Shown one piece after another: positions 1 to 50,068 of a DNA stretch of 64,000 nucleotides. Position 1 is the first letter of the stretch; every line of letters begins with the position of its first letter. The DNA is from Bacillota bacterium. GTDB lineage: Bacteria > Bacillota > Clostridia > Ch29. The stretch covers positions 34,607-98,606 of the forward strand of contig JAXGPT010000002.1 of the NCBI GenBank assembly GCA_040766775.1, read 5' to 3'. A model generated the notes under the pieces. The model saw only the letters and a list, made by a program, of their open reading frames with translations. It did not search any database and was not told the DNA's origin. The translations under genes and the position numbers were made by a program.

Positions 1-1059
1 TATGACTTAAGCGAAGGTGGGGCCGATGAAAACAAAACCTTGGCTGGTATATTAAGCGACATAAACAAAAACACTGGCGCTGGAGTGCTAGCCTATTACG
101 ATTCGGTGACCGACAAGATAGTAATTAAGTCAAAGGACTACGGTGTGGGAGCTGAAGTTTCGATAGAAAACCTCGAGGGAAATCTTTTCGGAGCCGGCGG
201 TGCGCTGCAAATTGACGACGGCATAAGCTTTGGCAAGAACTCGCAGATAGAGCTGAACGGGGTTGTAATAAACAAGAACAGCAACAGATTCACAATAGAG
301 GGCTTAAGCTTTTATCTCAAGGAGACCTCCGACGAAACGGTAGTTATTAACGTGGCAAGGGATACCCAGGGGGCCTTCGATGCCATAAAGAACTTCGTGG
401 ATGAGTATAATAAAGTAATAGAAACTATAAACAGCAAGCTGTACGAGGAAAGGTTCAGGGACTATCCACCGCTGACCGATGAGCAGAAGGAAACCATGAG
501 TGACAGGGAAGTGGAATTGTGGGAGCAAAAGGCAAGGAGCGGGCTTTTGAGAAACGACCCCGTGCTGAGCTCGATAGTGAGCCAAATGAGGACCCTTATG
601 TATCAAAAGGTGGAGGGTACCGGTTCGGTTTACAATACTTTAAGCTCCATAGGTATAAAGACAAGGGACTACAAGGAATTTGGCAAGCTCCACATTGACG
701 AGAACAGGCTGAGGGAAGCCCTCAATAACGACCTGGAGGGTGTTGTGAGCCTGTTTAGCCAAAGCGGCGAGGTGGACAGTCAAAGGGGCCTTGCCGTCAG
801 ACTCTACGATGCTGTAAACAGCGGCATTACCCGGCTGTCCGACAAGGCGGGAAGCTCCACCAGCCTCATTACCTATGACAACAGCTATATAGGTAAAAGA
901 ATTAGGGACATGGACAAGAGAATTGAAAGCATGGAGGAATACCTATTCCAGCTTGAGGATAAGTACTGGAGACAATTCACTGCCATGGAGAAGGCATTGA
1001 ACGAGATGTACTCTCAAAGCATGTGGCTTTCACAGCAGCTTATGTTTTGGGGTAATTGA
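1..1059 (+). CDS. fliD: Flagellar filament capping protein FliD (hook-associated protein 2), C-terminal part; 5' end lies outside the window
   Basis: 339-aa ORF with typical FliD C-terminal coiled-coil; followed by fliS and a fliT-like gene as in B. subtilis. Confidence 0.75.
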   Translation, partial: YDLSEGGADENKTLAGILSDINKNTGAGVLAYYDSVTDKIVIKSKDYGVGAEVSIENLEGNLFGAGGALQIDDGISFGKNSQIELNGVVINKNSNRFTIEGLSFYLKETSDETVVINVARDTQGAFDAIKNFVDEYNKVIETINSKLYEERFRDYPPLTDEQKETMSDREVELWEQKARSGLLRNDPVLSSIVSQMRTLMYQKVEGTGSVYNTLSSIGIKTRDYKEFGKLHIDENRLREALNNDLEGVVSLFSQSGEVDSQRGLAVRLYDAVNSGITRLSDKAGSSTSLITYDNSYIGKRIRDMDKRIESMEEYLFQLEDKYWRQFTAMEKALNEMYSQSMWLSQQLMFWGN

Positions 1060-1469
1060 TAAACGGGGGGAGAAGCAAATTGGGAATTCCAAATGCGTAT
1101 AAAAGCTATAAGGAAAACTCGGTGACCACTGCCTGTCCTGAGGAATTGGTGGTGCTGATGTACAGGGGATTGGAAAAGTATATTAAACAGGGACAAATAT
1201 ACATAAAGGAAGGGAATTTCGAAAAAACCAACGAGGTACTGTTGAAGGCCCAGGACATTGTATGCGAACTGATGTTTTCGCTGGACATGGATGTCGAAAT
1301 GTCCGGGCCGTTGTATGCCCTTTATGACTTCTTGCTGAACTGCCTAATAGAAGGCAACATCAAGAAAGAAATCTCCATACTGCAGCAGGCCCTTGGCATA
1401 GTGTCCGGGCTTAGGGAAGCCTGGGAAGACGCTCTTATAAGCGTTAGACAGATAAAATACGGGAAATAG
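1056..1469 (+). CDS. fliS: Flagellar export chaperone FliS
   Basis: 137-aa ORF with FliS-like motifs (NAYKSY...TASPEEL); alternative TTG start near 1080 has a GGGGGAG RBS. Confidence 0.8.
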   Translation: MINGGRSKLGIPNAYKSYKENSVTTACPEELVVLMYRGLEKYIKQGQIYIKEGNFEKTNEVLLKAQDIVCELMFSLDMDVEMSGPLYALYDFLLNCLIEGNIKKEISILQQALGIVSGLREAWEDALISVRQIKYGK

Positions 1470-1483
1470 GGGGATACCTGGGG

Positions 1484-1957
1484 ATGGCCTACCTAAAAAA
1501 ATTAATTAGGTACAGCGAGGAAAAGCTGGATAAGCTGAAACAGATTGAAGAGATTACCATGCAGCAGAAGGCTGCTATTGACAGCCAAGACTATGCGGCG
1601 CTTAGTTCACTTGTTGAGGAAAAACAAAAAGTAATAGACTACATAGACTGGTGTGACAGCGCCTTTCAGGAGGAGCTCGAGAAGGTCAAAAGAAGACTGG
1701 GGGTAAAATCCATTAAGGACATAGGGGAAGCGGAGGACAAGGAAGAAAAGAAGGCCCTTGTTGACATTATTGGAATGGTCATTGAGACAATAGAGAAAAT
1801 ACAAGTCTTGGAAAGGGAGAACCAAAAGAAACTTCTCGAGTCCATGGACCAGGTAAAGGAAAAGTTAAGAAAAATAAGGAACGGGCAAAAAAGCGTTGCG
1901 GTATATGACAGCGGTATGGGCCTGGCATCCGGCAGTTTTTTGGATAAGAAAAAATAG
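1484..1957 (+). CDS. Coiled-coil flagellar protein, FliT/FlgN-like
   Basis: 157-aa charged helical protein in the position after fliS. Confidence 0.5.
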   Translation: MAYLKKLIRYSEEKLDKLKQIEEITMQQKAAIDSQDYAALSSLVEEKQKVIDYIDWCDSAFQEELEKVKRRLGVKSIKDIGEAEDKEEKKALVDIIGMVIETIEKIQVLERENQKKLLESMDQVKEKLRKIRNGQKSVAVYDSGMGLASGSFLDKKK

Positions 1958-1995
1958 GAGAGATTGATGAGAAACGCTGCCGATGGTATAATGAA

Positions 1996-2222
1996 ATTAA
2001 AGTTGAATAAAGCTTATTCGGGTCTGTGGTTGAAAGTCGATGCTAACCGCAGGCGAAGCGACCCACGTAAGCCGGTAAAAGTGCCGGTGAGCATGGTGCG
2101 GTTTAGGTGTAAGTCCTGCCTGCCGGGGATGGTCCCGGTGGAGACGGGGGGTAGTGAGGGCGTAATGCCGGAGCGAGACCTGCAGCAGGCGAGTGTGGGG
2201 TCAAAGACCAGGTCAGCCGAAT
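1996..2222 (+). ncRNA. Candidate structured ncRNA (raiA-motif-like) between fliT and hpf
   Basis: ~227-nt GC-rich block (~60% GC) in an AT-rich intergenic region; ends form a perfect 12-bp closing helix (aagcttattcgg...ccgaataagctt); the raiA motif is known to sit next to raiA/hpf in Firmicutes; the 86-aa ORF 1964..2224 over it looks spurious. Confidence 0.4.
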
Positions 2223-2330
2223 AAGCTTTATTTTTTATTTTACACTATTCGTTTTATTACTTCATATTTTTCCTTTTTGGGGTTAAAGTTGACATTAAAG
2301 TAATGATAATAAGCATAATTCGACATGGAT

Positions 2331-2427
2331 TTATCCACAGGTTTTGGACGCATTATTCACATCTATTAATGCAGAAACATGGGTTATTCACATAGTTATG
2401 CACATTATCCACATTTTTTGTTTCCAC
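2331..2427 (+). promoter_or_regulatory. DnaA-box cluster upstream of hpf
   Basis: TTATCCACA at 2331-2339 and 2405-2413 (perfect); TTATTCACA at 2354-2362 and 2385-2393 (8/9); weaker tTTCCACA at 2419-2427; all same orientation, ~25-30 bp spacing. Confidence 0.55.
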
Positions 2428-2643
2428 AAAACTGAACAATCGACTATCAAAATACTTAACTTTAACAATTCGGTGGTGGTAATATTTTTGTATTTTCCTG
2501 CGAATAGTTTTAATTGGACACAATTGGATATAAATATAATAAAAGATTATAATAAAATCAACACCTCAATACGAATAAACAACACTGCAATCTGGCATGT
2601 CAATTCTTAAAAACCATTACGATTATGATAGCATCTGGATTTT

Positions 2644-3171
2644 ATGCGTATTATTACGAGTGGGAAAAACATGGAAATAACCGATGCCTTTAGGGACACC
2701 ATTGAACGGAAGCTGGGAAAGCTGGGAAAGTTTTTTCATAAGGACACCGAGGCCCAGGTAACGCTCAACGTTGAAAAAAACCGGCACATAATAGAGGTCA
2801 CCATCCCCTTTGACGGAGTACTGATAAGGGCGGAAGAATGCACCGACGATATGTATACGTCCATAGACAAGGCAGTGGATAAACTGGAGCGCCAGATTAG
2901 CAAACATAAAACCAAGCTGGAAAAGAGATTTCGCGGAAGCAAGATGCTCTTTGAAAACATAGAGGCTACAGGGAAAGAGGACCTGGATAGGCCGAAGGTG
3001 GTAAGGACCAAAAGATTCGCCATGAAACCCATGCCCGTAGAAGAGGCTATTCTACAAATGGAACTTTTAGGCCATAACTTCTTTGTTTTTTCAAACGGTG
3101 ATACCGAAGAGGTAAACGTTGTATATAAAAGAAAGGACGGAAATTACGGTTTGATTGAGCCCATGTTCTAA
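2644..3171 (+). CDS. hpf: Ribosome hibernation promoting factor (long HPF/YvyD/RaiA family)
   Basis: 175 aa; N-terminus MRIITSGKNMEITDAFRD matches the YvyD N-terminus; position between fliT and secA as in B. subtilis. Confidence 0.85.
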   Translation: MRIITSGKNMEITDAFRDTIERKLGKLGKFFHKDTEAQVTLNVEKNRHIIEVTIPFDGVLIRAEECTDDMYTSIDKAVDKLERQISKHKTKLEKRFRGSKMLFENIEATGKEDLDRPKVVRTKRFAMKPMPVEEAILQMELLGHNFFVFSNGDTEEVNVVYKRKDGNYGLIEPMF

Positions 3172-3189
3172 ATGTAGTGAGAGAAATGT

Positions 3190-3220
3190 GGCAGTGGAAT
3201 TTATATTCCACTGCCTTTTT
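3190..3220 (+). terminator. Intrinsic terminator of hpf (also the insertion target of intron copy 1)
   Basis: 11-bp stem ggcagtggaat/attccactgcc, 4-nt loop, then TTTTT. Confidence 0.75.
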
Positions 3221-5149
3221 ATGTTCGCCCGACATGGGCAGTAACTAGGCGGTGAAAGTCCGCTATGGGCTTGGTAGTGGGAACCATTAGCTAAACAGCA
3301 AGGGTGTTCACCGTGAGGTGAAATTGAGGAAGCTGCAGGCAAAGTCCTGCACTGACGGACAGGAACTGTGACATAAGGTATACGTGGAACGGACGAGTTT
3401 GCCACCAAAACGAAGTCCAACACTACCCGAATTCCACGGTGTAAATGCAGCGGTGACATGGGATGAAAGTTACTGTTCTTAATCGGGAGGTCTGGGTTGG
3501 CAGGGGTACGTCAGGCAGGGAATGAATTTTCCTCATGATAACCCATGCAGCGATGTATGGCCGAGCCTGTCAGAAGTCAAGAAGAGGTCATAGTACCATA
3601 CCGGATATATACGGAATGGGAAGGACCGAACGGAAGGATGTTTTGGTATTGTGAAGCACACTACGAAATGCGATGAGCGCAGCCAACTTCATACTGAAGA
3701 CTTACCTGTGTGAGGATAGGTGGAACCTGAAAGAAGTATGGAGCGTAGAGCATTTCGTTTACGTCTTCCAAAGACCAAAACGATGGCAAATGAGTATGCT
3801 GGAAGCTTGCTTGATAAAATACTTCTGACCGAGACAACATGAACAAGGCATACAAGAGGGTTAAGTCAAACAAAGGCAGCCATGGAATTGATGGAATGAC
3901 AGTAGATGAACTTCTACAGTTTCTGAAAGAAAAAATGGTGAGCAAATCAGGCAGTGTATCCGAGGGTACTTACGCAAGCCAAAACCTGTGCGGCGGATAG
4001 AGATAACAAAGCTGGCGGGAAAAAGACTACTTGCATACCAACAGTAGTGGACAGAGTAAGTGCAACAGGCAATAGCCCAGGTATTAAGCCCAATCTTGGA
4101 GAAGCGTGTTCTCGGAATTGAGCTTGCGGTTCAGGCCGGGCGACGCAAAACAGGCGGTATTGAAATGCATGAATACATAGAAGCAGGCTACGACTGGGGC
4201 TGTGGATATACGGACTTTGCGAAATACTTTGATACCGTAAACCACGACAAATTGATGGGCCTAATCCATAAAACCGTTAAGGATAGGGAGTAATATCACT
4301 TATCCGCAAATTCTTCAATCAGGAGTAATGATAAATGGAGTAGTGGTGGAAACGGAAGAGGGCTGTCCGCAGGTGGCCCCTTGGCGCCCGCTGCTATCCA
4401 ATATCATGCTGAATGAACTGGATAAGGAACTAGAAAGAAGGGGGCTTAAATTTCTGCCGGTACGATGATGTAAACATATACGTCAGAAGCAGGAAGGCAG
4501 CAGAAAGGGTAATGGCCAGTGTTACACGGTTTATCGAAGACGATTTAAAACTTCTCTAAGGTAAACCGTGAAAAGAGTACTGTTGATACAGGCTATGGCG
4601 GCTGAAATTTTTAGGTTTTCCTTTTACCGTAAAGATAGTGGTATAGGGATAAGGGTGCACCCAAGGTCACTACGAAGCTTAAATCCAAGCACAAAGGAGA
4701 TAACCTCAAGGAGTAATGCTATGAGCATGGAATACAGGATATTTAAACTGAACCAGAGCATTACCGGCTGTAAACTACTTTAGCCTGGCGGACATGAAAG
4801 CAATAGCTGCTAAACTTGACGGGTGGATAAGGCGCAGGATAAGAATGTGCTATTGAAACAGTGGAAGAAAGTTAGTACAAAGCACAGAAACCTTGTAAGG
4901 TTAGGTATAGATAACTACAAGCAAGTGGCTTTAGCAGTATACAACACGAGAAAAGCTACTGGTATACAGCCATTAAAGGCTTTATCCTTATTAAATCCAT
5001 CACCAATGAATACCTAAAAAGTTTGGGTCTAAAAGTCAGTATCCGAAAGATATTCATTAGTCCATTAAATATCTCGCTGAACTGCCGTATGCCGGACGGC
5101 ACGTACTATATGGTGAGAGGACGGGGGTTAATCATCCCTCCTACTCGAT
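3221..5149 (+). mobile_element. Group II intron copy 1 (class-C-like; inserted right after a terminator); reverse-transcriptase/maturase ORF decayed
   Basis: ~1.93 kb, >90% identical to 25371-27298; group II RT motifs (MNKAYKRVKSNKGSHGIDG.., PTVVDRVVQQAIAQVLSPI..) split by many stops/frameshifts; YADD motif deleted in this copy; domain V/VI-like 3' end ...gccgtatgccggacggcacgtac...ctactcgAT. Confidence 0.8.
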
Positions 5150-5309
5150 TTTTGTTGGTAAAATAAAGGAATTCATGAATTTAAGTAGAATTATATAAAT
5201 ATCCGTTTGGAATAGGAACCGGTGTAGTTAACAGTAGACTGATGGGAAGGAAAAGTATACCGGCTTACCATAACTGCTGAAGAGAGGGAAACAATGTGGT
5301 AAAAGCAGA

Positions 5310-5681
5310 ATGTCACAGAGACTGCCTTACAAGAACTTATTAATGATATTGAGGGTAATAGTTTCTTCCAAGGTCAAGCTGGATGATACAGGTAACCTAG
5401 TAGAAATACATGCACTGGCCGACAAGTCTAGGAATGCCAAGCAGATAGTGAGGGATATCCAGTCGGCTGTTACAGCCAAATTTGACCTGGAGATTGACCA
5501 TAGGATAATAAGCATTGCCCAGCTGAGTTGTGACAGTGTAATGCAAAAGGACCTGCGTATTGTATTCAAGGGAATGGAGGTTGCAAGCAAGGGGCTGGAG
5601 CTTGATGTTAAGGTTATGCTTTTCACAGAGAGAAGGATTACTGCGGCAGTCAAAAGGGTATTAACACGACTACCAGCATAA
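5310..5681 (+). CDS. Hypothetical protein
   Basis: 123-aa ORF; no family recognised. Confidence 0.35.
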   Translation: MSQRLPYKNLLMILRVIVSSKVKLDDTGNLVEIHALADKSRNAKQIVRDIQSAVTAKFDLEIDHRIISIAQLSCDSVMQKDLRIVFKGMEVASKGLELDVKVMLFTERRITAAVKRVLTRLPA

Positions 5682-5713
5682 ACAGAACCATAGCCCAGGC
5701 GACACTGAAAGCC

Positions 5714-5938
5714 TTGTCAGATTTTTTAAATATCGGGGAAATCTTTGTGGTGGAGGATGTGGGGACTCTCAACATAGCCAAAACAAATGTGGTGGTGGTA
5801 GCTGTTACGTGTGTCGATAAAAACGGGGAGCAGCTCCTTATAGGTTCTTCTATGAATTTGGGGGATATAAAGGAAGCAGTGGTCAAAGCAACTTTAGACG
5901 CGGTAAACAGAAGGATAACCAAATTAACGGGCAGATAA
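5714..5938 (+). CDS. Hypothetical protein
   Basis: 74-aa ORF directly downstream of 5310..5681; no family recognised. Confidence 0.35.
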   Translation: MSDFLNIGEIFVVEDVGTLNIAKTNVVVVAVTCVDKNGEQLLIGSSMNLGDIKEAVVKATLDAVNRRITKLTGR

Positions 5939-6149
5939 CTCTATAATTCAGGCCGGCACAGATAGCTTAAGCGGAGATGGTATATTATTTAGTTAGGCGT
6001 GAAAGCAGACAAATGAGTAAAGGAGGCTATATCCATGGCAAAGGTAATAAGCGTTCTGTTGTCGTTGATGACTTCTGTACTTAGCTGGCGGCGCCGGCTG
6101 GAGTTGGAAATAAAACCTATTATGCCGGCCTGAATTGGAGTTATGTCAG

Positions 6150-7420
6150 CCTAATGAGAATAAACAATGGACAGACTTCCTGTGAAAGCGTGAAAATTGA
6201 TAATTGGAGCAACTGTTATTATTGCAATAATATTAGGGATATTCTTTTAACGTATGGGGACTGGAAAAAGATATTGGAGAAGTAGTGTTTTTTGTTGTTT
6301 TGGCTACAATAGGCGAGTCATTAAGCATCGCTTTACCTAACCAAATCAGCGTTTCTGTGGTGTTCTCGTACATTTTGTTTGCATTGTAATGCTGTTCAAT
6401 CCTCTGACGGCAGGTTTACTAGTCGGGGGCTGGCCATTTAATGTTTGGTGTATAAGAGAGAAGGAAAATCGGGCAGTCTATTCAATACCCTTTATAAAAC
6501 AGTCTTTAATGTATGCACTGCTTTCGTTTCATCGGTTGTATCCGGTATAGTATACAGCTACCTATATGTGCCCGGGGGATATATAAACCTGGCAAGTGTT
6601 ATACTGCCGATTTCAATAGCATCTCTTGTTTACCTGGCGGTAAATTCTTCCACTGTTGTGCTATTGATTTCAAATCTGTTGAACAAGACCATCAGGTCTA
6701 TTTGGAAACAGAATGTTAATTGCAGGCAAAACTACCTAATAATGTCACCCCTTGGAGTAATACTGGCTATTGCATATCAAAACTACGGGTACTTTGGAAT
6801 ACTTTTATTTTTGGCCCGCTGCTTATGGCAAGATACCTTTAAACTGTATATCGAATTGAAGAGCAGCTACTCCGAAAACCATACAGGCCCTGTCCAGTGG
6901 ACACACTGAGGCCAAGGACCCGGTGACCAGCGGTCATGCCGAGCTGCAAGCTTATATCTTCGACAGTTATAGCCTGGGGGATGGGACTTTCGGAAGCCAG
7001 GATAGACAATATAATGTATGCGGGAATTCTCCACGATATCGGTAAAATAGGTATATCCGACAATGTTTTGCAAAAACCGCAGGCTTACCGGATGAATATG
7101 ATAAGATAAAGGAGCATTCCGCCATTGGTGCAGATATATTAAGGGACATTGACTTCTTAAGGGATGCTTCCAGAATAATCCGGCATCACCATGAGCGCTA
7201 TGACGGTAAAGGATATCCTGACGGTATAGGCGGAGAAGGGGTGCTCATTGAATCATATATCCTTGGAGGGGCCGATGCCTTTGATGCCATGACCAACGAC
7301 AGGCCGTACAGAAAAGCGTTGACAGCGGAAGGTCTTCCGGGATGATTATGAACAGGCGGGAAAGCAGTTCCATCCCCGGGTGGCGGATACTTTTGTTAAA
7401 CTATTTGATAAGGGTTGTTG
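6150..7420 (+). pseudogene. Membrane-anchored HD-GYP phosphodiesterase, multiply frameshifted
   Basis: TM-rich N-terminal pieces (6150-6909) then HD-GYP motifs in shifting frames: LHDIGKIGI, HHERYDGKGYPDG, GADAFDAMTNDRPYRKA. Confidence 0.6.
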
Positions 7421-8013
7421 AAACGTGCTGATTGAAGGCGCCTTGTTTTCGCTAATAATAGGCAAATTACGCGGGGGAAAGTTTAAGAGCTTGTGTAGGT
7501 GACAATACACCACCCATGGATGTTTATACTTCACTTTGTAATAGAATTCGAACCCTGTTTGCGGTAGCGGCCGGTATAATAGAGGTTGGTGCCAGTGACT
7601 GTATATACCTTCATTCCTTGTCATACTTATTCTGTTTATAGCGATAATATCCAACAGGAGCATCCGGCCATGTGGATCTTTTCTTGTGTGCTGTTAAATT
7701 TCATTGTGATATTCATAAACGGAGGGGCAAATGCCCATATCCTTATAAGGCCTGCAGAGGGCGGGACTGAAAAAGAAGCACAGATTATTTCCGCCGGCGG
7801 TATCATTACGCACCAGGCCCCTTACCCCTGGATACCAAGCTCTTTCTTGCGGATGTAATAGTTCTTCCTCCGCCATATCCTTTCCTGCTCGATGAGCATA
7901 GGCGACTTCATTATTTGCCCTAGTAATACTGTTTGTCCAAAAGGCAATGCTGCAAGAAAAATAGCGAGGCAGAGCCGGATGATATGTTTAAATATAAAGC
8001 AGAATCTAAATAT

Positions 8014-8037
8014 CGCCCCGTTAAGGGGTTTTTTTAA
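8014..8037 (+). terminator. Intrinsic terminator inside the ~700-bp non-coding gap upstream of secA
   Basis: cccc-gttaa-gggg hairpin followed by T7. Confidence 0.5.
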
Positions 8038-8144
8038 TGTGCCGCCTCACCTTAATTTTAAAGAGGTATGCCACATTTCTCTTAATTGCCTATTGGTTTA
8101 TTTCATGATAGAATTTACTTTGAATTAAAGACGAGGTGTTGGAT

Positions 8145-10639
8145 ATGGCAAATTTTTTATCAAAAATCCTGGGCAATACTAAATGAGAGGGAAATTAAAA
8201 AGCAACAAAACGGTGGAAGCGATAGAGGCACTGGAGGGGCAGATGAAGGCCCTCAGCGATGAACAGCTTAGGCAAAAGACCGATGAGTTTAAAAAAAGGC
8301 TTGCTGCGGGAGAAACCCTTGACGACCTGCTGGTGGAAGCCTTCGCGGTGGTAAGGGAGGCGTCGGTCAGGGTTCTAAATATGAGGCATTTCCCGGTGCA
8401 GCTTGCGGGAGGCATTGTGCTGCACCAGGCAGGATTGCCGAAATGAAAAACTGGCGGCTGCAAACCCGGTAGCGACACTGCCGGGTTACCTTAACGCCCT
8501 CTCCGGAAAGCGGGTTCATATAGTCACCGTTAACGATTACTTCCGGGAAGCAACAGGGACAGCCAGTGATGGGCGAAGTGTACAAGTTTCTGGGGCTGGA
8601 GGTCGGGTTTACGTCGGCCCGGACTTTGAACAGCGTAAAAAAGTCCTACAACGCTGACATAACCTTCGGTACCAACAACGAGTTTGGTTTTGACTACCTG
8701 AGGGATAACATGGTTATATACAAGGAGCAGATGGTGCAAAGGGGACTTAACTATGCCATAATAGACGAGGTGGACAGCATACTGATAGACGAGGCCAGGA
8801 CCCCGTTGATAATTTCCGGTGTCGGCGAGAAGTCCACCAAGCTTTATTCGGTGGTGGACACCTTTGTAAGGGGTCTAAGACCGGAGGAACACTTCACGGT
8901 GGACGAAAAGGCCAACACCGTAACGCTGACCGAAGAGGGAGTAAGGAAGGCGGAACAATATTTCAACCTGGAAAACCTGGCGGACCCGGAGAACATGGAG
9001 ATATCCCACCATATAAACCAGGCCCTCAAGGCTCACCGGCTTATGTCCCGTGATATTGACTACGTGGTGAAGGACAACCAGGTTATAATAGTTGACGAGT
9101 TTACCGGAAGACTAATGTTCGGCAGGCGGTACAGCGACGGGCTGCACCAGGCCATAGAAGCCAAGGAGAGGGTTAAGGTTGAAAGGGAATCCAAAACCCT
9201 GGCCACCATAACCTTCCAGAATTATTTCAGGATGTACAGCAAATTGGCAGGAATGACGGGTACCGCCAAGACCGAGGAGGAGGAATTCCGGGCTATCTAT
9301 GGCATGGACGTTGTGGAGATACCCACTAACATGCCCATGATAAGGGACGACCTGCCGGATATTGTATACCGGACCACCGAGGGAAAGTTTAAGGCGGTGC
9401 TAGAGGACATTATACAAAGGCATGCGGCTGGGCAGCCTATACTTGTGGGAACCATTAGCATAGAAAAATCAGAACTTTTGAGCAGGATGCTGCAAAGAAG
9501 GGGTGTGCCCCACGAGGTTCTAAACGCCAAGTACCATGAGAAGGAAGCCCAGATTATAGCACAGGCGGGTCAACGGGGTGCGGTGACCATATCCACCAAC
9601 ATGGCGGGCAGGGGTACCGACATAGTTCTCGGTGAAGGCGTTAAGGAACTGGGCGGACTGCATGTAATAGGCACCGAGCGGCATGAGAGCAGGAGGATTG
9701 ACAACCAGCTTCGAGGCCGGTCGGGAAGGCAGGGGGACCCCGGTTCTTCGCAGTTTTACATTTCCATGGAAGATGAACTGATGAGGCTTTTCGGGTCGGA
9801 GCGGATAATGGGCATGATAGACAAACTGGGCTTTGATGACACACAGCCCATTGAACACCCCATCCTGAGCAAGTCGATAGAGAATGCCCAGAAAAAGGTG
9901 GAGGCTCGAAACTTTGATATAAGGAAGCATGTGCTGCAGTATGACGATGTAATGAACAAGCAGAGGGAAGTAATTTATGCCCAGCGCAGAATGGTGCTGG
10001 AGGGGGAGAACCTGAAAGAACAGGTCCTCGAGATGATAAGCGACGTCATAGATTCAATGCTGGATATTTATACCTCCCACAGCCAGTACCCCGAGGAATG
10101 GGACTTAAAGGGCCTTGAAACCTACGCGAGAAAGGTGTTTGTAATTAAAGACCCTCTGCCCTTTGGAAACCCCGAGGACCTAACCCGGGATATTCTTAAG
10201 GATATGCTTATGGAAAAGGCCATTGGAATTTATAACGAGAAGGAAGAAAAGATTGGCTCCGAACAGATGAGGGAACTGGAAAGGGTAATACTGCTCCGGG
10301 TTGTGGACATGAAGTGGATGGAAAACATAGACAACATGGACCAGCTGAGGCAGGGTATTGGCCTTAGGGCGTACGGGCAGGAGGACCCGGTTATAGCGTA
10401 CCAGAAGGAAGGCTACGAGATGTTCCAGGAAATGATAAATTCAATAAAGGAAGACACGGTAAGCTACCTGTTCGGGGTTAGGATAGAGCAGGTGCCAAAA
10501 AGGAAAGGGTGGCCCAGCCGGTGGAGGCAAGCCAGGGGGAAGGAGCCAAGAAACCGGTCAAAAAAGAGGGCAAGGTGGGCAGGAACGACCCCTGTCCCTG
10601 CGGAAGCGGCAAGAAATTCAAAAAGTGCTGTGGTAGGTA
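8145..10639 (+). CDS. secA: Preprotein translocase ATPase SecA (at least 5 frameshifts in this assembly)
   Basis: [10 protein letters not shown].., [62 protein letters not shown] and the Zn-finger tail [18 protein letters not shown] all present but in different frames; RBS before ATG 8145. Confidence 0.85.
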
Positions 10640-10651
10640 AGGAGTGAAATG

Positions 10652-11769
10652 TATGTTGGAATTGGAACAATACAGCCAGCAGATGGAAAGCATTGAGGAA
10701 GATATGCAGGAAATGAGGGTTTCCCTTTGACGTGGACAATGCCGTTCAAAGGATTGCGGAGCTGGAAAAGGAAATGGCGGACCCCGGCTTTTGGAACGAC
10801 AGCGATAGGGCTGCTGCCACGATAGACAGTTTAAAGGGTTTGAAGTCGAGAGTGGACAAATACAACGCCGTTAATAAGGAATTTGAAGATTTAAAGGTGC
10901 TGCTTGAGCTGGCGGTGGAGGAAGAGGACGATGGTGCACTGGCATCCGAGATACAGGATAGTTTTGCCGGGTTTGTTGAACGCTTGGAGCGGCTTAAGAT
11001 TGAAACGCTGCTTAATGGCAAATATGACGATAAAAACGCAATTCTTTCGCTGCACTCGGGTGCCGGCGGGCTGGAGGCCCAGGACTGGGCGGAAATGCTG
11101 ATGAGGATGTATACCCGGTGGGCGGAGGACAAGGGATATAGGGTTAAGGTGCTGGACCTTTTGGCGGACGACGAGGGAGGAATTAAAAGTGCCACTCTGC
11201 TGGTGGAGGGAGAAAACGCCTACGGCTACCTGAAGGCGGAGAAGGGCGTGCACCGGCTGGTTCGGATTTCCCCCTTCGATTCCTCCGGCAGGAGGCATAC
11301 TTCCTTTGCTTCGTTGGATGTAATGCCGGAACTGGACGACACGGTGGAGGTGGATATAGACCCGGACGACCTGAGGATTGACACCTATAGGTCCAGCGGC
11401 GCCGGTGGGCAGCACGTGAACAAAACCGATTCCGCCGTCAGGATAACCCATATTCCCACCGGTATAGTGGTGCAGTGCCAGAACGAAAGGTCCCAGCACA
11501 GCAACCGGGAAACCGCCATGAGAATGCTTAAGTCAAAACTTTTAGAGCTTAAGGAGCGGGAACAAAAAGAAAAGATAGAGGACCTGCAGGGCGAGTACAA
11601 CCAGATTGCCTGGGGCAGCCAGATAAGGTCCTATGTATTTCACCCCTACAGTATGGTCAAGGACCACAGGACCAACGTGGAGGTGGGGAATGTAAACAGG
11701 GTAATGGACGGGGACTTGGACCCGTTTATATTTGCTTATCTTAGGGCGCAAAAGGACAGCGTGGATTAA
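10652..11769 (+). CDS. prfB: Peptide chain release factor 2, with programmed +1 frameshift
   Basis: Frame-0 leader ends at CTT TGA C (10725-10731) preceded by a GAGGG SD-like motif; +1 frame continues DVDNAVQRIAELEKEM...GGQHVNKTDSAVRITH (GGQ motif); one extra indel in the leader near 10680. Confidence 0.85.
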
Positions 11770-11781
11770 GGAGGAGAGTTT

Positions 11782-13146
11782 TTGAAGTATAATTCGAGAT
11801 TGCCTATGGGGTATGGGTACAGGTGGTTGGTATGGGGCACCATGTGCCTGGCCTATGTCATAGTGTTTTTCCACAGGATTGCCACCGGGGTGGTGGCGGA
11901 TAACCTGATGTCCGAGTTCGGGGTCACAGGGGCTGCCCTAGGCAGCTTGGGAGCGGTATACTTTTATGTCTATACCTTTATGCAGATACCCTCGGGCGTT
12001 CTTGCGGATACGCTGGGGGCAAGGATAACGGTTTCCACCGGTGCACTGGTGGCGGGTATTGGCTCAATTGTATTTGGCAGGGCGGCGGGTATAGGAATGG
12101 GCTATGCCGGCCGGTTCCTGGTGGGCCTTGGCGTGTCGGTGGTGTTTGTGGCCATACTTAAGGTGCAGTCCCAGTGGTTCAAGGAGAGCGAGTTTGCCAC
12201 CATATCCGGCCTTACCGCATTCATTGGCAACGGCGGGGCGCTGCTTGCAGGTACACCCCTTGCCCTGGCGGTGGCAAATTTCAGTTGGAGAACGGTGTTT
12301 GCAGGTATGGGCGTAATTTCGATAATGATTGCGGTGCTGTGTTACATGGTGGTAAGAAATAAGCCGGAAGACAGGGGCCTGCCGGGCATGGCCGAAGTTG
12401 AAGGAAATAAGCTCGAGGCTTCCCCGGACAGGCCGCGGATATTAAGCAGCATCGGGACGGTCATTACCAACAGGCACACCTGGCCGGGGTTTATTGCCTT
12501 CGCCGGGCTTTCTGGGTCAATACTGTCCTTCAGCGGCATGTGGGGCGTGCCCTATATAATGACTGTCTACGGCTTGGACAAGGCAGCGGCCTCCTCCTAT
12601 GTAATGGCCGCAACGGCGGGGGTAATGGTTGGAAGCCTCGCTTCCGGCCTTATTTCCGATAAGACGGGGAAAAGGAAGGGCCCCCTTTTGGCGTTTTGCC
12701 TGGCAAACCTTGCCGTATGGTCGGTACTGGTGCTGTGGAATAATGGAAAGCCGCCGGTTGAATTCCTATACCCGCTGCTTTTTATGCTGGGTTTTACAGC
12801 CACCGGGTATGTTATCACCTGGGCTTATGCAAAGGAAGTCAACCCGCCGCATATTGCCGGGATAACGCTGGGCACCTTTAATATAGCCGGTTTTTTGGGG
12901 CCGTCCATACTGCAGCCCCTTATGGGGTTTGTGCTTGACATGAACTGGGCAGGCCAGGTGATGGGCGGAACCAGGGTGTATTCCCAGGCTGCCTATGCAA
13001 AGGCGCTGTCGCTTTGCGCCGCGGCGGTACTTGTATCGGCGGTGGGGGCCGCTTTTGTCAGCGAAACCAATGGTCGGAATGTTTATAACGCAGAGGGGCG
13101 GCGGTCCCTGGACAAAACGGGGGTGTTATCCAATGATGCTAATTAA
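11782..13146 (+). CDS. MFS transporter
   Basis: 454 aa, ~12 predicted TM segments; TTG start with AAGGAGGAG RBS. Confidence 0.7.
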   Translation: MKYNSRLPMGYGYRWLVWGTMCLAYVIVFFHRIATGVVADNLMSEFGVTGAALGSLGAVYFYVYTFMQIPSGVLADTLGARITVSTGALVAGIGSIVFGRAAGIGMGYAGRFLVGLGVSVVFVAILKVQSQWFKESEFATISGLTAFIGNGGALLAGTPLALAVANFSWRTVFAGMGVISIMIAVLCYMVVRNKPEDRGLPGMAEVEGNKLEASPDRPRILSSIGTVITNRHTWPGFIAFAGLSGSILSFSGMWGVPYIMTVYGLDKAAASSYVMAATAGVMVGSLASGLISDKTGKRKGPLLAFCLANLAVWSVLVLWNNGKPPVEFLYPLLFMLGFTATGYVITWAYAKEVNPPHIAGITLGTFNIAGFLGPSILQPLMGFVLDMNWAGQVMGGTRVYSQAAYAKALSLCAAAVLVSAVGAAFVSETNGRNVYNAEGRRSLDKTGVLSNDAN

Positions 13147-14293
13147 GGGTGGAAAGGTTTTTACAATGGAGGGAGAAGTCCTCGACGGGGGATTTGTACT
13201 TATAGAAAAGGGCAGGATATCCAAAGTAGGGCAGGGGGAACCGCCGGGGCGTTACCTTGATATGGCACAGCTAATTGACGCCGAAGGAATGTTCATAATG
13301 CCGGGGTTTGTGGATGCCCACTGCCATATTGGTCTTTTTGAGGACGGCATAGGCTTTGAAGGGGAGGACGGTAACGAGGCGACCGACCCGGTAACGCCCC
13401 ATTTGAGGGCCATAGATGCTATAAACCCCATGGACAGAGCCTTTGAGGAAGCGGTCCGGGGCGGTGTAACCACGGCGGTGACCGGGCCTGGCAGCGCAAA
13501 CGTGCTGGGCGGAGAGTTTGTGGCGATAAAAACGGTGGGCGGCAGCGTTGAGGACATGGTTATAAAAAACCCCGTCGCCATTAAGTGCGCCTTCGGGGAA
13601 AACCCAAAAAGGGTGTACTATGAGAAAAAGACCGCTCCGATGACCCGGATGGCAACGGCGGCCCTGCTGCGGGAAGCCCTTATGAAGGCAAAGAGGTACA
13701 TGGAAAGAAAGGAACGGGCCAAGGAGGACAAGCAGCCGGAACTGGATGTGAAAATGGAATCGCTTGTAAGGGTGCTTAGGAAGGAGCTGCCGCTCAAGGC
13801 CCATGCCCACAGGGCGGATGATATAATGACCGCCCTTAGGATAGCCCGGGAGTTTGACATAGACATGACCATAGAGCACTGCACCGAGGGGCACAGGATA
13901 ACCGAGACGCTGGTGCGCGAGGGACGAGGCCTTGTGGTGGGTCCCGGTCTTAGCTCCCGGTCCAAGTATGAGCTTAGGGACCTAACTTTCAAGACTCCGA
14001 GCATCCTGTCGGCTGCCGGCCTGGATATAGCCATTATGACCGACCATCCGGTGATACCCATACAATACCTGCCGGTGTGCGCGGCCCTTGCGGTGAAGGA
14101 AGGTATGGACGAGTACAAGGCCCTGGAGGCCATTACAATAAATCCAGCCAGGATTACCGGCATAGCCGACAGGGTAGGGAGCCTGTTGCCGGGGAAGGAT
14201 GCGGATATAGCCATTTTTGACGGGCACCCCTTCAACTATACCACCAAGGCCCGGTATGTAATAGTAAACGGCAACCTAGTGTATAGTAATTAG
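13133..14293 (+). CDS. Amidohydrolase-family metal-dependent hydrolase
   Basis: MMLIKGGKVF...FVDAHCHIG, typical amidohydrolase N-terminus; ORF track extends upstream but overlaps the MFS gene. Confidence 0.65.
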   Translation: MMLIKGGKVFTMEGEVLDGGFVLIEKGRISKVGQGEPPGRYLDMAQLIDAEGMFIMPGFVDAHCHIGLFEDGIGFEGEDGNEATDPVTPHLRAIDAINPMDRAFEEAVRGGVTTAVTGPGSANVLGGEFVAIKTVGGSVEDMVIKNPVAIKCAFGENPKRVYYEKKTAPMTRMATAALLREALMKAKRYMERKERAKEDKQPELDVKMESLVRVLRKELPLKAHAHRADDIMTALRIAREFDIDMTIEHCTEGHRITETLVREGRGLVVGPGLSSRSKYELRDLTFKTPSILSAAGLDIAIMTDHPVIPIQYLPVCAALAVKEGMDEYKALEAITINPARITGIADRVGSLLPGKDADIAIFDGHPFNYTTKARYVIVNGNLVYSN

Positions 14294-14341
14294 TGAACTG
14301 TTTCCGGCTGAAGAATATGAACATGGACTGGAAGTGGGTGT

Positions 14342-14821
14342 ATGAAATATTCCTTTGTAAGCAAAAGCCCTGGGGATACCTTGAAGTTTGGCATACGCCT
14401 GGGAAAGCATTTGAAGCCCGGGGACGTGGTATGCCTTGAAGGGGAGCTTGGAGCCGGCAAAACGGTATTAACCGGTGGTATAGCCAAGGGATTGGGTATA
14501 ATAACCGGTGTGACCAGCCCTACCTATACAATTATTAACGAGTACCCGGGCGAGATACCCCTTTACCACATTGACCTTTACCGGCTGGAGGACGGGGATG
14601 AGTTCTACTATATAGGCGGGGAGGACCTTTTGTACGGACAGGGGGTATCGGTGATTGAATGGGCATCCCGGGCGGAGGGGATTCTGCCGGAGGACTGCCT
14701 GTGGATCAGCCTCAAGAGACTTGACGAATCCAAAGATTTTAGGCTTATAGAACTTACGGTTGCCGAAAAACACAGGGACTTTTTGGAGAGGGTGTCAAAG
14801 AGTGAAAATACTGGCCATTGA
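14342..14821 (+). CDS. tsaE: tRNA t6A biosynthesis ATPase TsaE (YdiB/YjeE)
   Basis: P-loop GELGAGKT; size and synteny with tsaB-rimI-tsaD. Confidence 0.85.
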   Translation: MKYSFVSKSPGDTLKFGIRLGKHLKPGDVVCLEGELGAGKTVLTGGIAKGLGIITGVTSPTYTIINEYPGEIPLYHIDLYRLEDGDEFYYIGGEDLLYGQGVSVIEWASRAEGILPEDCLWISLKRLDESKDFRLIELTVAEKHRDFLERVSKSENTGH

Positions 14822-15518
14822 TACTTCCTCAATGGTGGCTTCTGCCGCCGTGATGGATGGGCAAAAACTTTTAGCTGAGTACATAGTAAACCATAAAAGG
14901 ACCCATTCGGAGCAGCTTATGCCCATTATTGAGAAAGTGCTTGAAAGCAGCGGCACCGGCATCCGGGAGATTGACGCAATAGCGGTGGCCAGCGGGCCGG
15001 GGTCCTTCACCGGTCTTAGGATAGGGGCTGCCACCGCAAAGGGGCTGGCCCACGCCCGGGGCATCAAGATTGTGGGAGTTCCCACCCTTGACGGCTTGGC
15101 CTTTAATTTGCCCCACTGCCAGGGTATTATCTGCCCGATAATGGACGCAAGAAGGAACCAGGTATATACCGCCCTTTATAAATGGGATAGGGGGGGCTTT
15201 TACAAGCTAATGACCCACTGCGCAATCGCCCTTTCGGAACTATTAGAGGAAATAAAAAGAAGAGAGGAGAGGGTTGTGTTCCTGGGGGATGGCGTTCCTG
15301 TACACCGGGAAACCATCAAGAAGGAATTGGGGGAAAGGGCCGATTTTGCACCCAAAAACGCCGACAGGCAGAGGGCGTCCTCCATCGCCGAACTAGCCCT
15401 CCAGGCACTGGAGCGGGGGGAAGGCCAGGACCCGGAATCCTTTGTACCATTCTATTTGAGGAAATCCCAAGCCGAAAGGGAATACGACAGAAAAACCAGG
15501 CCGGAGGGCTGCCTATGA
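14802..15518 (+). CDS. tsaB: tRNA t6A biosynthesis protein TsaB (YdiC/YeaZ)
   Basis: KILAIDTSS...GPGSFTGLRIG motif; GTG start at 14802. Confidence 0.8.
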   Translation: MKILAIDTSSMVASAAVMDGQKLLAEYIVNHKRTHSEQLMPIIEKVLESSGTGIREIDAIAVASGPGSFTGLRIGAATAKGLAHARGIKIVGVPTLDGLAFNLPHCQGIICPIMDARRNQVYTALYKWDRGGFYKLMTHCAIALSELLEEIKRREERVVFLGDGVPVHRETIKKELGERADFAPKNADRQRASSIAELALQALERGEGQDPESFVPFYLRKSQAEREYDRKTRPEGCL

Positions 15519-15967
15519 ACAACCCGGCCATTTCACCCATGCGCATAGAGGACCTGGATGATATTGAGACCATTGAGAATTTGAGCTTCCAGGCACCCTG
15601 GCCCAGGCAGGCCTTTGTACGGGAACTCTGCGAAAACACCCTCGCCCGTGATTTTACCGTAAGGGATAACGGCAGGGCGGTGGCCTATGGCGGGATGTGG
15701 CTAATACTGGACGAGGCCCATATAACCAACATCGCGGTGCATCCCCGGTACCGGGGAGAGGGAATAGGCAAGGCACTGCTTAAGGGCATGATTGATTATG
15801 GTATCTCAAAGGGAATAAAAAGCTTTACCCTAGAGGTAAGGGAAAGCAATCATGTGGCCATAGCGCTGTACAGCCGGCTGGGTTTTAAAAGGGTAGGCGC
15901 CAGGAAGGATTATTATTCCGATACGAGGGAAGATGCGATAATAATGTGGCTGCGTATTCCGGATTAA
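15515..15967 (+). CDS. rimI: Ribosomal-protein-alanine N-acetyltransferase RimI (GNAT)
   Basis: GNAT acetyl-CoA motif RGEGIGKALL; between tsaB and tsaD. Confidence 0.8.
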   Translation: MNNPAISPMRIEDLDDIETIENLSFQAPWPRQAFVRELCENTLARDFTVRDNGRAVAYGGMWLILDEAHITNIAVHPRYRGEGIGKALLKGMIDYGISKGIKSFTLEVRESNHVAIALYSRLGFKRVGARKDYYSDTREDAIIMWLRIPD

Positions 15968-16164
15968 GTGGATTCCTTCTTGTTCTCCCGGTCCGGGGAA
16001 TCCTTATCCTTACCGGGGCCCGACAAACTTTTTAGCTGTTCAAAGTCGGTGTTTTGCGGCATGAGGTTTGTACCATCAAGGCTTTCTATCCTGGAAAAGG
16101 CCGCGTCGGTAAACACGTTTGCCCTATACGCCCTCTCGACAAGGGTCTTTTTTCGTTTTCCCAT
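15964..16164 (-). CDS. Small hypothetical protein (66 aa)
   Basis: Strong RBS AAGGAGGG 7 nt before the ATG on the minus strand. Confidence 0.4.
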
Positions 16165-16245
16165 AATATTTCCCTCCTTATATTATTATCTTTTCTCCCG
16201 GTGGTGTATAATATATGTGTGATTTTTTGGAGAAGGGGAAAGGAT

Positions 16246-17313
16246 ATGTCGTATTTGAAAGCAGCGGCAAAAAAATTGGAAAAGTTCAAGAACGGACAGG
16301 ATACAATTATCCTTGCGGTGGAGACTTCCTGTGACGAGACCTCCTGCGCGGTTTTGAAAAACGGCCGGGAGGCCCTTTCAAACGTGATATCCACACAGGT
16401 AGATATTCACAGGAAATACGGCGGTGTGGTTCCCGAGATTGCCTCCCGGAAGCACATAGAGCTTATTGACTACGTGATTGACCAAGCGCTGCGGGAGGCG
16501 GGAGTATCGCTGCGGGATTTGGATGCGGTAGCGGTCACCAACGGCCCGGGGCTTGTGGGGGCGCTGCTGGTGGGTGTTTCCCATGCCAAGGCGATGGCCT
16601 TTGCACTGGGGGTGCCGCTGGTGGGGGTGCATCATATAGAGGGACATATTTGTGCCAATTACGTGCAGCACAAGGACCTGGAGCCCCCCTTCGTCTGCCT
16701 GGTGGTCTCCGGGGGGCACAGCCACCTTGTACATGTCAAGGACTATGGGCGGTATGAGATACTGGGCAGGACAAGGGACGATGCCGCCGGGGAAGCCTTT
16801 GACAAGGTGGCCCGGGCACTGGGACTGGGGTATCCCGGCGGGCCGCTGATTGAAAGGGAAGCCCGAAAGGGCGACCCCGAAGCGGTGGACTTCCCAAGGA
16901 CTTACCTTGAGGCGGGAAGCCTGGACTTCAGTTTCAGCGGCTTAAAGACCGCGGTGTTGAACCATTTGAATCAGTGCAGGCAAACAGGCCGGCCGGTTAA
17001 CACCGCCGATATTGCGGCGAGTTTTCAGAGCGCGGTAGTAGAGGTGCTTGTGAACAAAACCATGGCGGCGGCCAAAAAATGCGGTACCGGTGTTGTGGCC
17101 CTTGCCGGGGGCGTTGCGTCAAACGGAAGGCTGCGCATGGAGTTTGAAAACCGGTGTGCCGACGAAGGACTGCAGCTTAGATACCCTTCCAGGGTCCTGT
17201 GTACCGACAATGCAGCCATGATTGGTGCGGCGGGCTATTACAGGCTTTGCAAGGGGCTGGCAAGCCCTATGACTCTTAATGCGGTAGCTTCAATGGAAAT
17301 TGATTCTTATTAA
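16246..17313 (+). CDS. tsaD: tRNA N6-adenosine threonylcarbamoyltransferase TsaD (Gcp/YgjD)
   Basis: [14 protein letters not shown]...HIEGH motifs; ATG 16246 with GGAGAAGGGGAAAGG RBS; TATAAT at ~16208. Confidence 0.85.
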
Positions 17314-17373
17314 GCAAAAATCTTATGTTTACCTTCCCGGGGAAGTTTTTGTTGGTAACCGGGGTGGGGAATT

Positions 17374-17484
17374 TGTGGATATTGTGGACATGCCCGGCCG
17401 TGACAGCGAAAAACCCTTTTAATTGTTGTGGATAAACTTGTGGACGGTGTGGACAGTTTGCGGAAATATAAATAATTATCCACA
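17374..17484. promoter_or_regulatory. DnaA-box cluster downstream of tsaD/gcp
   Basis: TTATCCACA perfect at 17476-17484 (+) and 17427-17435 (-); near boxes at 17374-82, 17384-92, 17439-47, 17448-56; sits between convergent tsaD and bioY. Confidence 0.6.
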
Positions 17485-17599
17485 AGCTGTGTTGGTTCCA
17501 TAATCTTTATGCAACTATTATATGACGCAAAATGTAAGACCGGCTGTTCTAAACAGCCGGTAGCAATGGTCATTTAGCAGAAGCTTATGAGCCGGAAAT

Positions 17600-18138
17600 A
17601 TTCAAAAGATTTTGCTTTATAAGGATTGTGCGCACGGAGCAGGCAACGGCGGCGCCCAGGGCAATCTTTATGATGGCTATGCCAATAAAGGGGAACACCC
17701 CGGCCATAAAAGCGGCCTTAAGCGTTATATCCAGCACCAGCGAAAGCTGCAGCATACCTGAGTATAGATTACACACAGCCCGCACAGCATGGCAAGAAAT
17801 GTACCGGTCAGCGTGGGAAGGGGCCTTTGTTCCACAATCTTTCCAATAACAAAGGAAGACAGCAAAAAACCCGTTATATAGCCCCCGGTAGGACCCATCA
17901 GCCGGGCAAGTCCGGCGGTACCCCCGGAGAAAACGGGCATTCCGATTATTCCGACGGCTATGTATATTAACTGGGAAAGCGTTGCCAGTCGGCTTCCGAG
18001 TATTGCCGCAGCAAGGCATACCGCCAGTTCCTGCATTGTTATTGGTACAGGACTTATGGGCAGTGGAATTGTAACCTGGGCGAAAATTGCTGTTAGTGCT
18101 GCAAACATTGATACAAGTATCATATCTTTTGTTTTCAC
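17600..18138 (-). CDS. bioY: Biotin transporter BioY (frameshifted near the 3' end)
   Basis: N-terminal 137 aa match BioY (PITMQELAV...GGTAGLARLMGPTGGYITGF); C-terminal part continues in another frame. Confidence 0.65.
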
Positions 18139-18245
18139 TTATTTCATCCTTTCTAACCGGGAAAACGGCTGTTTTGCATTCCTCGCCTAAATATCAGGAG
18201 CGGAGGCGTCGGAAGTCTATTTAATTATAAATGCAGCGGTTGCAA

Positions 18246-18321
18246 TTGTCAACCATAACCCGATGTAAGGTTAACAATAATAATGGTTGATTGACTATAC
18301 ACCGGGGATTGTATACAATAG
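18246..18321 (+). promoter_or_regulatory. Candidate GntR-type operators upstream of the GntR gene
   Basis: ATTGTATACAAT 12-nt perfect palindrome at 18310-18321; inverted repeat TTGTCAACCAT (18246-56) / ATGGTTGATTGAC (18283-95). Confidence 0.45.
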
Positions 18322-18349
18322 AGTCAATAAAGGAGGTTTCGGATGTGCC

Positions 18350-19009: not shown

Positions 19010-19096
19010 AACCGCTGCTTCCGGCCCGGGAAGATGTAAGCGCTACGGAATAAAGGATGCATAATCAAGGATATTCGGACCCGGCTTCAACCGGGT

Positions 19097-22036: not shown

Positions 22037-22162
22037 TTCTTTCACTCCTTTTACAGGGGCAGTTGTTTAGCAACTATCGACTACCAACTAAAATGATATA
22101 TATCATTTTAACAAAATGGCAACTGATAATAAAGAAAACTGGGGTAAATGACCAGATTCTTA

Positions 22163-22192
22163 TTGGTAATTATTTAACAAACTGATATAATT
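22163..22192 (+). promoter_or_regulatory. Rex operator overlapping the rex promoter
   Basis: TTGGTAATTATTTAACAA (22163-22180) matches the Rex box TTGTTAA-N4-TTAACAA in 17/18 positions; followed by extended -10 TGATATAAT (22184-22192). Confidence 0.55.
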
Positions 22193-22254
22193 TAATTGAA
22201 GACTGGAAATAGATATTCATAGCAGCGGAATACTATGGGACGAGGAGGGGTAGA

Positions 22255-22890: not shown

Positions 22891-22976
22891 GATAATAAAT
22901 AACATTAACAAGCAAATCGCGGCTGCCCGGAAACGGATTCAAGGCTGCGATTCGGTTTTTCATGGAAGTGAGGTAA

Positions 22977-25271: not shown

Positions 25272-25342
25272 AGAAGGACAGTTAAGGGACAAGGGGACAA
25301 GGGACGGTTCTTTGTCCCAAAAAGCAGCGTAAAAACGGGGCG

Positions 25343-28312: not shown

Positions 28313-28314
28313 TA

Positions 28315-50067: not shown

Positions 50068-50068
50068 C

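Follow-up and report, generated by a model that had tools for sequence, protein, structure and literature searches.

The window, by which we mean the whole 64,000-nucleotide stretch of Clostridia DNA analysed here, presents secA (8145-10640, plus strand) as a series of fragments in different reading frames, and groEL, several pur genes, rex, gdh and glnA are cut in a similar way. Are these lesions carried by the organism, or did they arise when its genome was sequenced and assembled? Comparison with other assemblies of the same species leads us to regard the frameshifts as very probably a technical artefact, that is, as errors of sequencing or assembly. The indels are private to the window, show no selection for reading frame and, when reverted, give back full-length ORFs. 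The original prediction of assembly indel errors is thus supported, since independent same-species assemblies are intact at the same loci.

The damage to secA can be followed in detail. The gene starts with an ATG at 8145 and its true stop lies at 10638-10640; the N-terminus meets a TGA at 8183-8185 and the coding sequence then continues in other frames, in ORF pieces at 8183-8446, 8403-8657 and 8566-10647, with the zinc-finger C-terminus encoded in 10509-10640. Taken in order, the pieces lie in frames 3, 2, 3, 1 and 3. When the longest piece was used as a query, the best matches were intact SecA proteins of 832 aa with 98, 95 and 94% identity. The contigs encoding the top two matches (L001 and L002) are 97.3% and 93.5-95% identical to the window at the nucleotide level, and when the window is aligned to them a string of 1-5-nt gaps appears between 8183 and 8644, plus one at about 10503.

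A same-species reference set was assembled from public sequence. Relatives drawn from the GTDB representative genomes, in a scan with the intact IMP dehydrogenase of the window, reach a best identity of at most 96% and are Clostridia MAGs, several of them apparently from anaerobic-digester or bioreactor samples; the source genome is thus not itself one of these representatives. Exact-sequence look-ups of the window's intact PrfB, GroES and 239-aa PurQ gave 22 loci from 14 independent sources, and the addition of contig L001, found through the secA search, brought the references to 23 loci from 15 sources. These include three NCBI assemblies (GCA_900198705.1, with a 2.6-Mb contig; GCA_050952605.1; and GCA_025563055.1), four ENA SPAdes assemblies (25-34x coverage), one Logan assembly and seven JGI metagenomes; a metagenome scan with PurH found a single close contig, L083. 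The references cover positions 1-3170, 5148-21957 and 24616-61033 at a depth of one to eight sources per position, and positions 3171-5147, 21958-24615 and 61034-64000 have no same-species reference. We called a difference private when the window was contradicted by at least 75% of the covering sources. In clean stretches the window is 99.96-100% identical to the same-species references (for example, 2 mismatches in 7,121 bp at 8830-15950, and none in 8,091 bp at 44700-52790 against six references). Based on this identity, the references belong to the same species and in places are effectively the same strain. The comparison with close relatives that had been suggested as a check proved decisive: with up to eight sources per position and 15 in total, the genes are intact. 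The references encode the window's broken genes without interruption wherever they cover them, except for a few breaks of their own at other positions.

In secA, three to six same-species references contradict the window at twelve indels, ten of which break the frame and two of which do not. Those in the first half of the series lie at 8183 (+1), 8204 (-2), 8430 (-1), 8452 (+1), 8468 (-2) and 8543 (+3), and those in the second half at 8549 (+2), 8569 (-1), 8613 (-1), 8615 (-3), 8642 (+1) and 10504 (-1). The earlier count of at least five frameshifts in this gene was therefore conservative. Eleven of the twelve fall within 8183-8642, where the Walker A codons (GEGKT, about 8452-8468) are scrambled, and the twelfth is the one at 10504. 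Private substitutions are distributed in the same manner: 38 of 43 are in the first 520 bp and the other five are all at 8802-8829, so that in the last 1.8 kb past 8829 the deletion of 1 nt at 10504 is the sole private difference. When the private differences are reverted, the SecA ORF is 832 aa long and identical to the SecA of contig L164 at 831 of 833 positions. Within the damaged 5' end, 28 of the 44 coding private substitutions are synonymous, so a real divergent allele lies beneath the errors there.

Could the cell read through such shifts? Biological recoding, by programmed ribosomal frameshifting or transcriptional slippage, would yield full-length proteins from a broken reading frame, and a real case adjoins secA. 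The gene prfB (10653-11766, plus strand) carries what by its sequence is a genuine RF2-type programmed +1 frameshift: a 25-codon ORF0 (10653-10730) ends in the site CTT TGA C at 10725-10731, with a Shine-Dalgarno-like GAGGG upstream. Seven relatives match the window exactly over a 41-mer spanning the site, and L002, which is more distant, retains the motif, so that all eight covering relatives have it. Because this real frameshift is common to the relatives while the other shifts are private, prfB serves as an internal control. The frame change in prfB is real, has the canonical motif and is conserved in 8/8 relatives, whereas the other shifts of the window have neither property; a search of secA, groEL and the other shifted genes against the references for a conserved RF2-type site found it in prfB only. 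A few indels do fall in stretches of A or T where slippage is conceivable in principle. However, no shift other than that of prfB is shared with relatives, and secA would need about ten shifts (+1, -1, +2 and -2) without a common motif, across Walker A codons that are themselves scrambled. We assign recoding a negligible probability. The prfB frameshift, although adjacent to secA, was absent from the original prediction.

The pattern seen in secA extends over the window. The pile-up holds 1,011 private substitutions, 97 private insertion events and 141 private deletion events; each of the 238 indel events is contradicted by at least 75% of the one to eight references covering it, drawn from the 15 sources. 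By size, 1-nt events are the most frequent (153), followed by 2-nt (55) and 3-nt (20) events. Their density is 3.9 per kb in coding DNA versus 6.4 per kb in non-coding DNA, and the share that would break a frame is 92% in the former versus 88% in the latter, a match from which we conclude that selection for frame is lacking. Among the 47 genes for which a same-species reference exists, 23 carry one or more private frame-breaking indels, a frequency of broken genes far above chance. Between 44700 and 52790, the window departs from six references at just two points, both of them 1-nt deletions and both breaking a gene.

A second alternative is genuine pseudogenisation, in which a degenerating lineage (a hypermutator or a dependent symbiont) would survive on functional copies elsewhere or on those of a partner. 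The frameshifts are physically in the sequence, every affected gene has premature stops, and some patches of the window hold real, synonymous-biased divergence that points to a distinct haplotype, all of which this explanation would accommodate. Pseudogene-rich reductive genomes, such as those of Mycobacterium leprae and recently host-restricted symbionts, have inherited lesions that are shared among strains, spare essential genes such as secA and groEL, and are under relaxed selection genome-wide. The window resembles the M. leprae type in the large share of its genes with frameshifts and premature stops, but differs from it in that the lesions are private, lie in essential genes and adjoin sequence that is 100% identical to intact relatives. 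Gene-wide decay, looked for in secA and groEL, was not found: the damage to secA is in its 5' end, and groEL has two indels and no substitutions. Decay would have to halt in the middle of a gene, as the 3' 2 kb of secA has only five private substitutions and one 1-nt deletion. Patches with about 3-15 differences per 100 bp adjoin stretches with 99.96-100% identity, a contrast that neutral decay over time could not produce; a natural pseudogene is implausible where about 9 differences per 100 bp adjoin kilobases that are 100% identical to intact relatives. In addition, non-coding DNA is struck at a similar rate.

The closest strain bears on this most directly. GCA_050952605.1 shares 368 strain-specific substitutions with the window and is on that basis its nearest relative. 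In the region that the two have in common, the window has 127 private indel positions, and at nearly all of them GCA_050952605.1 has the reference state; its own 28 private indels lie elsewhere. Inheritance of the lesions, as expected of pseudogenes, was thus not found against this strain; the 127 indel positions are the window's only, despite the shared substitutions, and so the lesions are not common even to the closest strain. Compared with GCA_050952605.1, private indels and private substitutions stand at a ratio of about 1:2, far above the ratios known from natural bacterial variation. Other same-species assemblies are broken as well, in different genes (Nramp in a JGI contig, purM and purH). 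Taken with the intact references, these observations make pseudogenisation very improbable, and we return to sequencing or assembly error for the individual genes.

In groEL (34909-36534, plus strand), where two frameshifts had been called, we confirm exactly two private differences, both indels: a deletion of 1 nt at 35999, which shortens an A5 run to A4, and a deletion of 2 nt at 36079. These put 27 codons out of frame with a stop at 36034-36036, leave both large pieces in frame 1 and truncate the product to 375 aa. Looked up by exact sequence, this truncated protein has no match on record, and neither do the window's 505-aa IMP dehydrogenase or the 272- and 270-aa ORFs at 22977/22983. All eight references have an intact groEL of 541-543 aa, and reversion restores 543 aa. 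In purL (51020-53217, plus strand) the single frameshift proposed earlier is a 1-nt deletion in a G-run at 51652, within an 8-kb stretch that has no substitutions against six references; the reverted gene has 738 codons. Elsewhere in the purine genes, private frame-breaking indels number one in purM, four in purN, one in purH (56511) and seven in purD, so that the several shifts expected in both purD and purH are found in purD, but purH has only one inside the gene. At purN a single extra base in a homopolymer had been proposed. A private extra base is indeed present at about 55662, but its context, GGC[G]CAT, is not a homopolymer. This base at first appeared to be common to the window and GCA_050952605.1, a hint of a real purM-purN fusion, and direct alignment then showed the sharing to be an alignment artefact, the base being private to the window. 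PurN, PurH and PurD are also full-length after reversion, as is a surface protein of 1,339 aa (1,342 codons).

For the regions that have no same-species reference, we called shifts in rex, the 5' part of gdh and glnA from HMM pieces and inspection of the frames, and in all three the earlier calls are borne out. The Rex profile matches rex (22255-22887, plus strand) in three pieces with an uncovered gap: frame 1 holds profile positions 3-39 and 159-211, and frame 2 holds the middle piece, 43-144. In gdh (24020-25268, plus strand), for which at least three shifts were expected, the pieces cover profile positions 4-159, 181-315 and 319-417 in three different frames, and eight private frame-breaking indels fall within 24689-24970, a segment covered by one or two references only. 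The body of glnA (61470-62902, plus strand) is intact at 61544-62902 and the N-terminal 25 or so codons are shifted; frame inspection identifies at least two shifts here, one of which is an extra T in a T-run near 61537. The suggestion that the artefact extends to the HD-GYP gene, the C-N hydrolase and the intron reverse transcriptases also holds, with 20 private frame-breaking indels in the first, 18 in the second and 23 in the reverse transcriptase of intron copy 2. Further counts are 17 in DUF5317, 16 in the PTS EIIC gene, 7 in ogg, 8 in the ABC-F gene and 8 in the surface protein. The corresponding intact reference proteins are PurL (733 aa), PurN (210 aa), PurH (513 aa), PurD (417 aa), OGG (296 aa), the C-N hydrolase (260 aa), the HD-GYP protein (424 aa) and the surface protein (1,339 aa), and PurM is intact in the references too.

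The errors are not spread evenly. It had been proposed that nearly every frameshift or pseudogene call in the window may be at least partly artefact, and the artefact reading stands, but the errors cluster in about four patches. Short indels occur at 11.0 per kb in these patches (16.4 kb) versus 0.68 per kb in the other 39.8 kb, where there are occasional isolated single-base errors. The patches carry roughly 5-15 differences per 100 bp, including substitution errors and some real strain divergence, and their edges lie inside genes. The first (5154-8667) reaches about 9-15 differences per 100 bp in sub-stretches; it contains a gene for a 214-aa hypothetical protein, the HD-GYP gene, DUF5317 and the first 520 bp of secA, inside which it ends, and it probably extends leftwards through group II intron copy 1 (3217-5151). 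The second (24689-29203) contains the 3' part of gdh, group II intron copy 2 and pxpC/pxpB. Its start probably lies further left, since rex and the 5' part of gdh are also shifted and 21958-24615 has no reference. The third (31358-33855) contains the C-N hydrolase, the PTS EIIC gene and the 5' part of ogg. The fourth (55121-60996) contains the end of purM, purN, purH, purD, yerC and a 2-hydroxyacid dehydrogenase gene; its 33 private indels lie atop a genuinely divergent haplotype common to the window and GCA_050952605.1, and it probably reaches to about 61540, where the glnA N-terminus is shifted. Localised damage of this kind might also be imagined as a recent burst of real, error-prone mutagenesis, for example in repair-associated patches of several kb, with survival on second copies or partners; such a burst would have knocked out secA, groEL and many more genes and yet spared the adjoining DNA, which stayed identical to that of relatives. 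We hold this to be exceedingly improbable.

Patchiness and real divergence also bring in another technical origin, the collapse of co-existing strains into one consensus. If reads from two or more haplotypes differing by several percent were merged, column-wise voting would yield a mosaic in which indels arise spuriously, and raw-read noise left by incomplete polishing would not be the main cause. The references are indeed 2.7-fold more diverse in the patches (0.0145) than outside them (0.0053), the secA 5' patch and the patch at 55-61 kb hold real divergent alleles, and the private indels of GCA_050952605.1 likewise lie at 27-30 kb and 55-61 kb, the segments in which that strain's haplotype is divergent. 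Of all patch alleles, 22% are found again in outgroup lineages. From 32 kb on, the third patch is an exception, and patchiness is tied to population diversity only loosely. In this patch the references are nearly invariant among themselves, and from 32 kb on all eight are identical. The private substitutions of this patch look random, falling 14, 16 and 13 times at codon positions 1, 2 and 3, with 13 of 43 synonymous (30%) versus 23% expected at random. Conversely, two strongly divergent blocks (15954-17505 and 52794-53444) are free of indels, and isolated single-base deletions occur in invariant sequence. We therefore consider strain collapse unlikely as the origin of the errors. Neither strain divergence nor polishing failure suffices as the sole cause of the patches, given the invariant sequence of the third patch from 32 kb and the two divergent, error-free blocks.

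Within a technical origin, we asked whether breakpoints fall in homopolymers. Indels of 1 nt lie in runs of at least four bases in 20-27% of cases versus a background of 9%, and among indels of 1-2 nt, 26% in patches and 37% outside them alter runs of at least three bases. Many events are complex, as in the scrambled Walker A codons. There is thus a modest enrichment but not a pure homopolymer signature, and this test supports the artefact reading only weakly.

Based on these data, we propose that the window belongs to a flawed consensus, assembled from metagenomes of anaerobic digesters or bioreactors, for a Clostridia bacterium that is uncultivated; noisy long reads, corrected only in part, are its most likely raw material. 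Where correction succeeded, the sequence would have reached 99.96-100% identity to other assemblies of the strain with occasional single-base errors left behind; where it failed, in about four patches amounting to some 16 kb, about 1.1 short indels per 100 bp would have persisted together with substitution errors. These residual errors would account for the frame pieces in which secA, groEL, the pur genes, rex, gdh, glnA and others now lie. The patchiness may reflect low long-read depth, failed short-read polishing in repeats (the intron copies) or in strain-divergent segments, or gap filling with raw reads.

Several published observations are similar. Indel errors in long-read assemblies (nanopore or PacBio CLR) fragment predicted proteins (Watson & Warr 2019, as cited in PMC6487183; Kastor, PMC12007338; Polypolish, PMC8812927), and like such error-laden assemblies the window has many indels of 1-2 nt with no preference for multiples of three, and truncated or split genes that are full-length in near-identical relatives. 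Residual errors after short-read polishing concentrate in repeats (PMC8812927); in the window, both group II intron copies are error-rich, and the two differ from each other by 9.7% with 68 gap openings. The window's rates are of the order published for nanopore metagenome assemblies: MinION assemblies carry 474 indels per 100 kb before polishing and 23 afterwards (PMC6487183), compared with about 1,100 in the patches and 68 outside them. Unlike polished nanopore assemblies, which are described as dominated by homopolymer errors, only a quarter to a third of the window's short indels are changes in homopolymer length, and unlike the known long-read cases its errors are strongly patchy and mixed with substitution errors and real divergence. 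The modest homopolymer association, the real divergence within patches, the loose tie of the patchiness to population diversity and a patch indel rate about twice the published unpolished rate weigh against our explanation.

The consequences are mainly for annotation. False breaks affect at least 23 of the 47 checkable genes; rex, gdh, glnA and intron copy 1, also broken, come on top of these. Pseudogene calls in the window, including those for the HD-GYP gene, the C-N hydrolase and the intron reverse transcriptases, are to be disregarded. Findings that rest on domains cut short, degenerate introns or odd fusions, of which the apparent one between purM and purN at 55662 is an example, should also be discounted. 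The frameshifts are of little biological interest and matter for quality control only, where their value as a warning is considerable. The comparison also offers a recipe that needs no reads: the protein of an intact neighbouring gene is looked up exactly, the same-species contigs that it leads to are piled up against the sequence, and errors are sorted from real variation.

Some unusual features of the window, by contrast, are real rather than artefacts, since they are shared with relatives or with another lineage. These are the prfB frameshift, a C-terminal-only guaA and the two substitution-only blocks, which the sequence comparison identifies as recombination imports and not error. Most same-species references differ from the first block (15954-17505) by about 7%, and of its 79 window alleles 75 occur in the L002 lineage as well; the second (52794-53444) is strongly divergent, also without indels. 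Likewise, the two group II intron insertions are not indel artefacts, judging from an intact intron in GCA_050952605.1 at the same site as copy 2 and from the recognition of both copies by Rfam. As a minor observation, IMP dehydrogenase is 505 aa long in the window and is called at 485 aa in the references, probably a mismatch of start codons.

The only genuine frameshift of the neighborhood is the one in prfB (10653-11766), which encodes release factor 2 and carries the classical programmed +1 frameshift. Its ORF0 consists of 25 codons and ends at CTT TGA C (frameshift site 10725-10731), with a GAGGG 5' of the site, and the +1 site is kept in all 8 relatives that we examined.

Private indels, those found in the window and contradicted by the same-species references, can also join or break up genes. 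For instance, the apparent PurM-PurN fusion ORF at 54606-55910 arises because of a private extra base at ~55662. The references instead encode purM and purN separately, as two genes that overlap and are read in different frames. In a second example, the gene for a surface protein of ~1,339 aa with SLH, CARDB, and Flg_new domains (40029-44043, minus strand) is broken up by 8 private frame-breaking indels; across 39868-44274, the content differs in the more distant relative L003. 

The guaA gene, which adjoins guaB, encodes the C-terminal ATP-pyrophosphatase domain only (38858-39853; 332 aa). This C-terminal-only form is common to all close relatives, and in more distant relatives (L007 and L008) guaA is full-length, at 517-584 aa. 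The glutamine amidotransferase domain seems to have been naturally split off or lost, and the short guaA does not look like an artefact.

Other public same-species assemblies also contain private indels of their own. In the nearest strain (GCA_050952605.1; L170/L179) and in JGI 3300053716 (L174), these lie at positions other than those of the window, and gene calls for Nramp, guaA, purM, and purH are missing or broken. Therefore, the indel problem is not confined to the window's assembly.

Two indel-free blocks, 15954-17505 and 52794-53444, differ from most same-species references by substitutions only (~7-12 differences per 100 bp). Of the 79 window alleles in the first block, 75 agree with the more distant L002 lineage, and a 190-bp segment within this block (15980-16169) is absent in the same-species references. 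Both blocks were apparently imported by recombination.

A group II intron is present twice, at 3217-5151 and 25367-27300, and both copies have Rfam D1-D4 matches and are rich in errors; aligned to one another within the window, they share 90.3% identity with 68 gap openings. Copy 1 sits 3' of hpf, a site at which the same-species GCA_900198705.1 has no intron, and the insertion is thus polymorphic within the species. An intact group II intron RT of 469 aa is encoded by GCA_050952605.1.

Lastly, two full-length RNA elements lie in clean sequence: a raiA RNA motif 5' of hpf (2013-2225; 182 bits) and a purine riboswitch 5' of purE (49361-49461; 84 bits).
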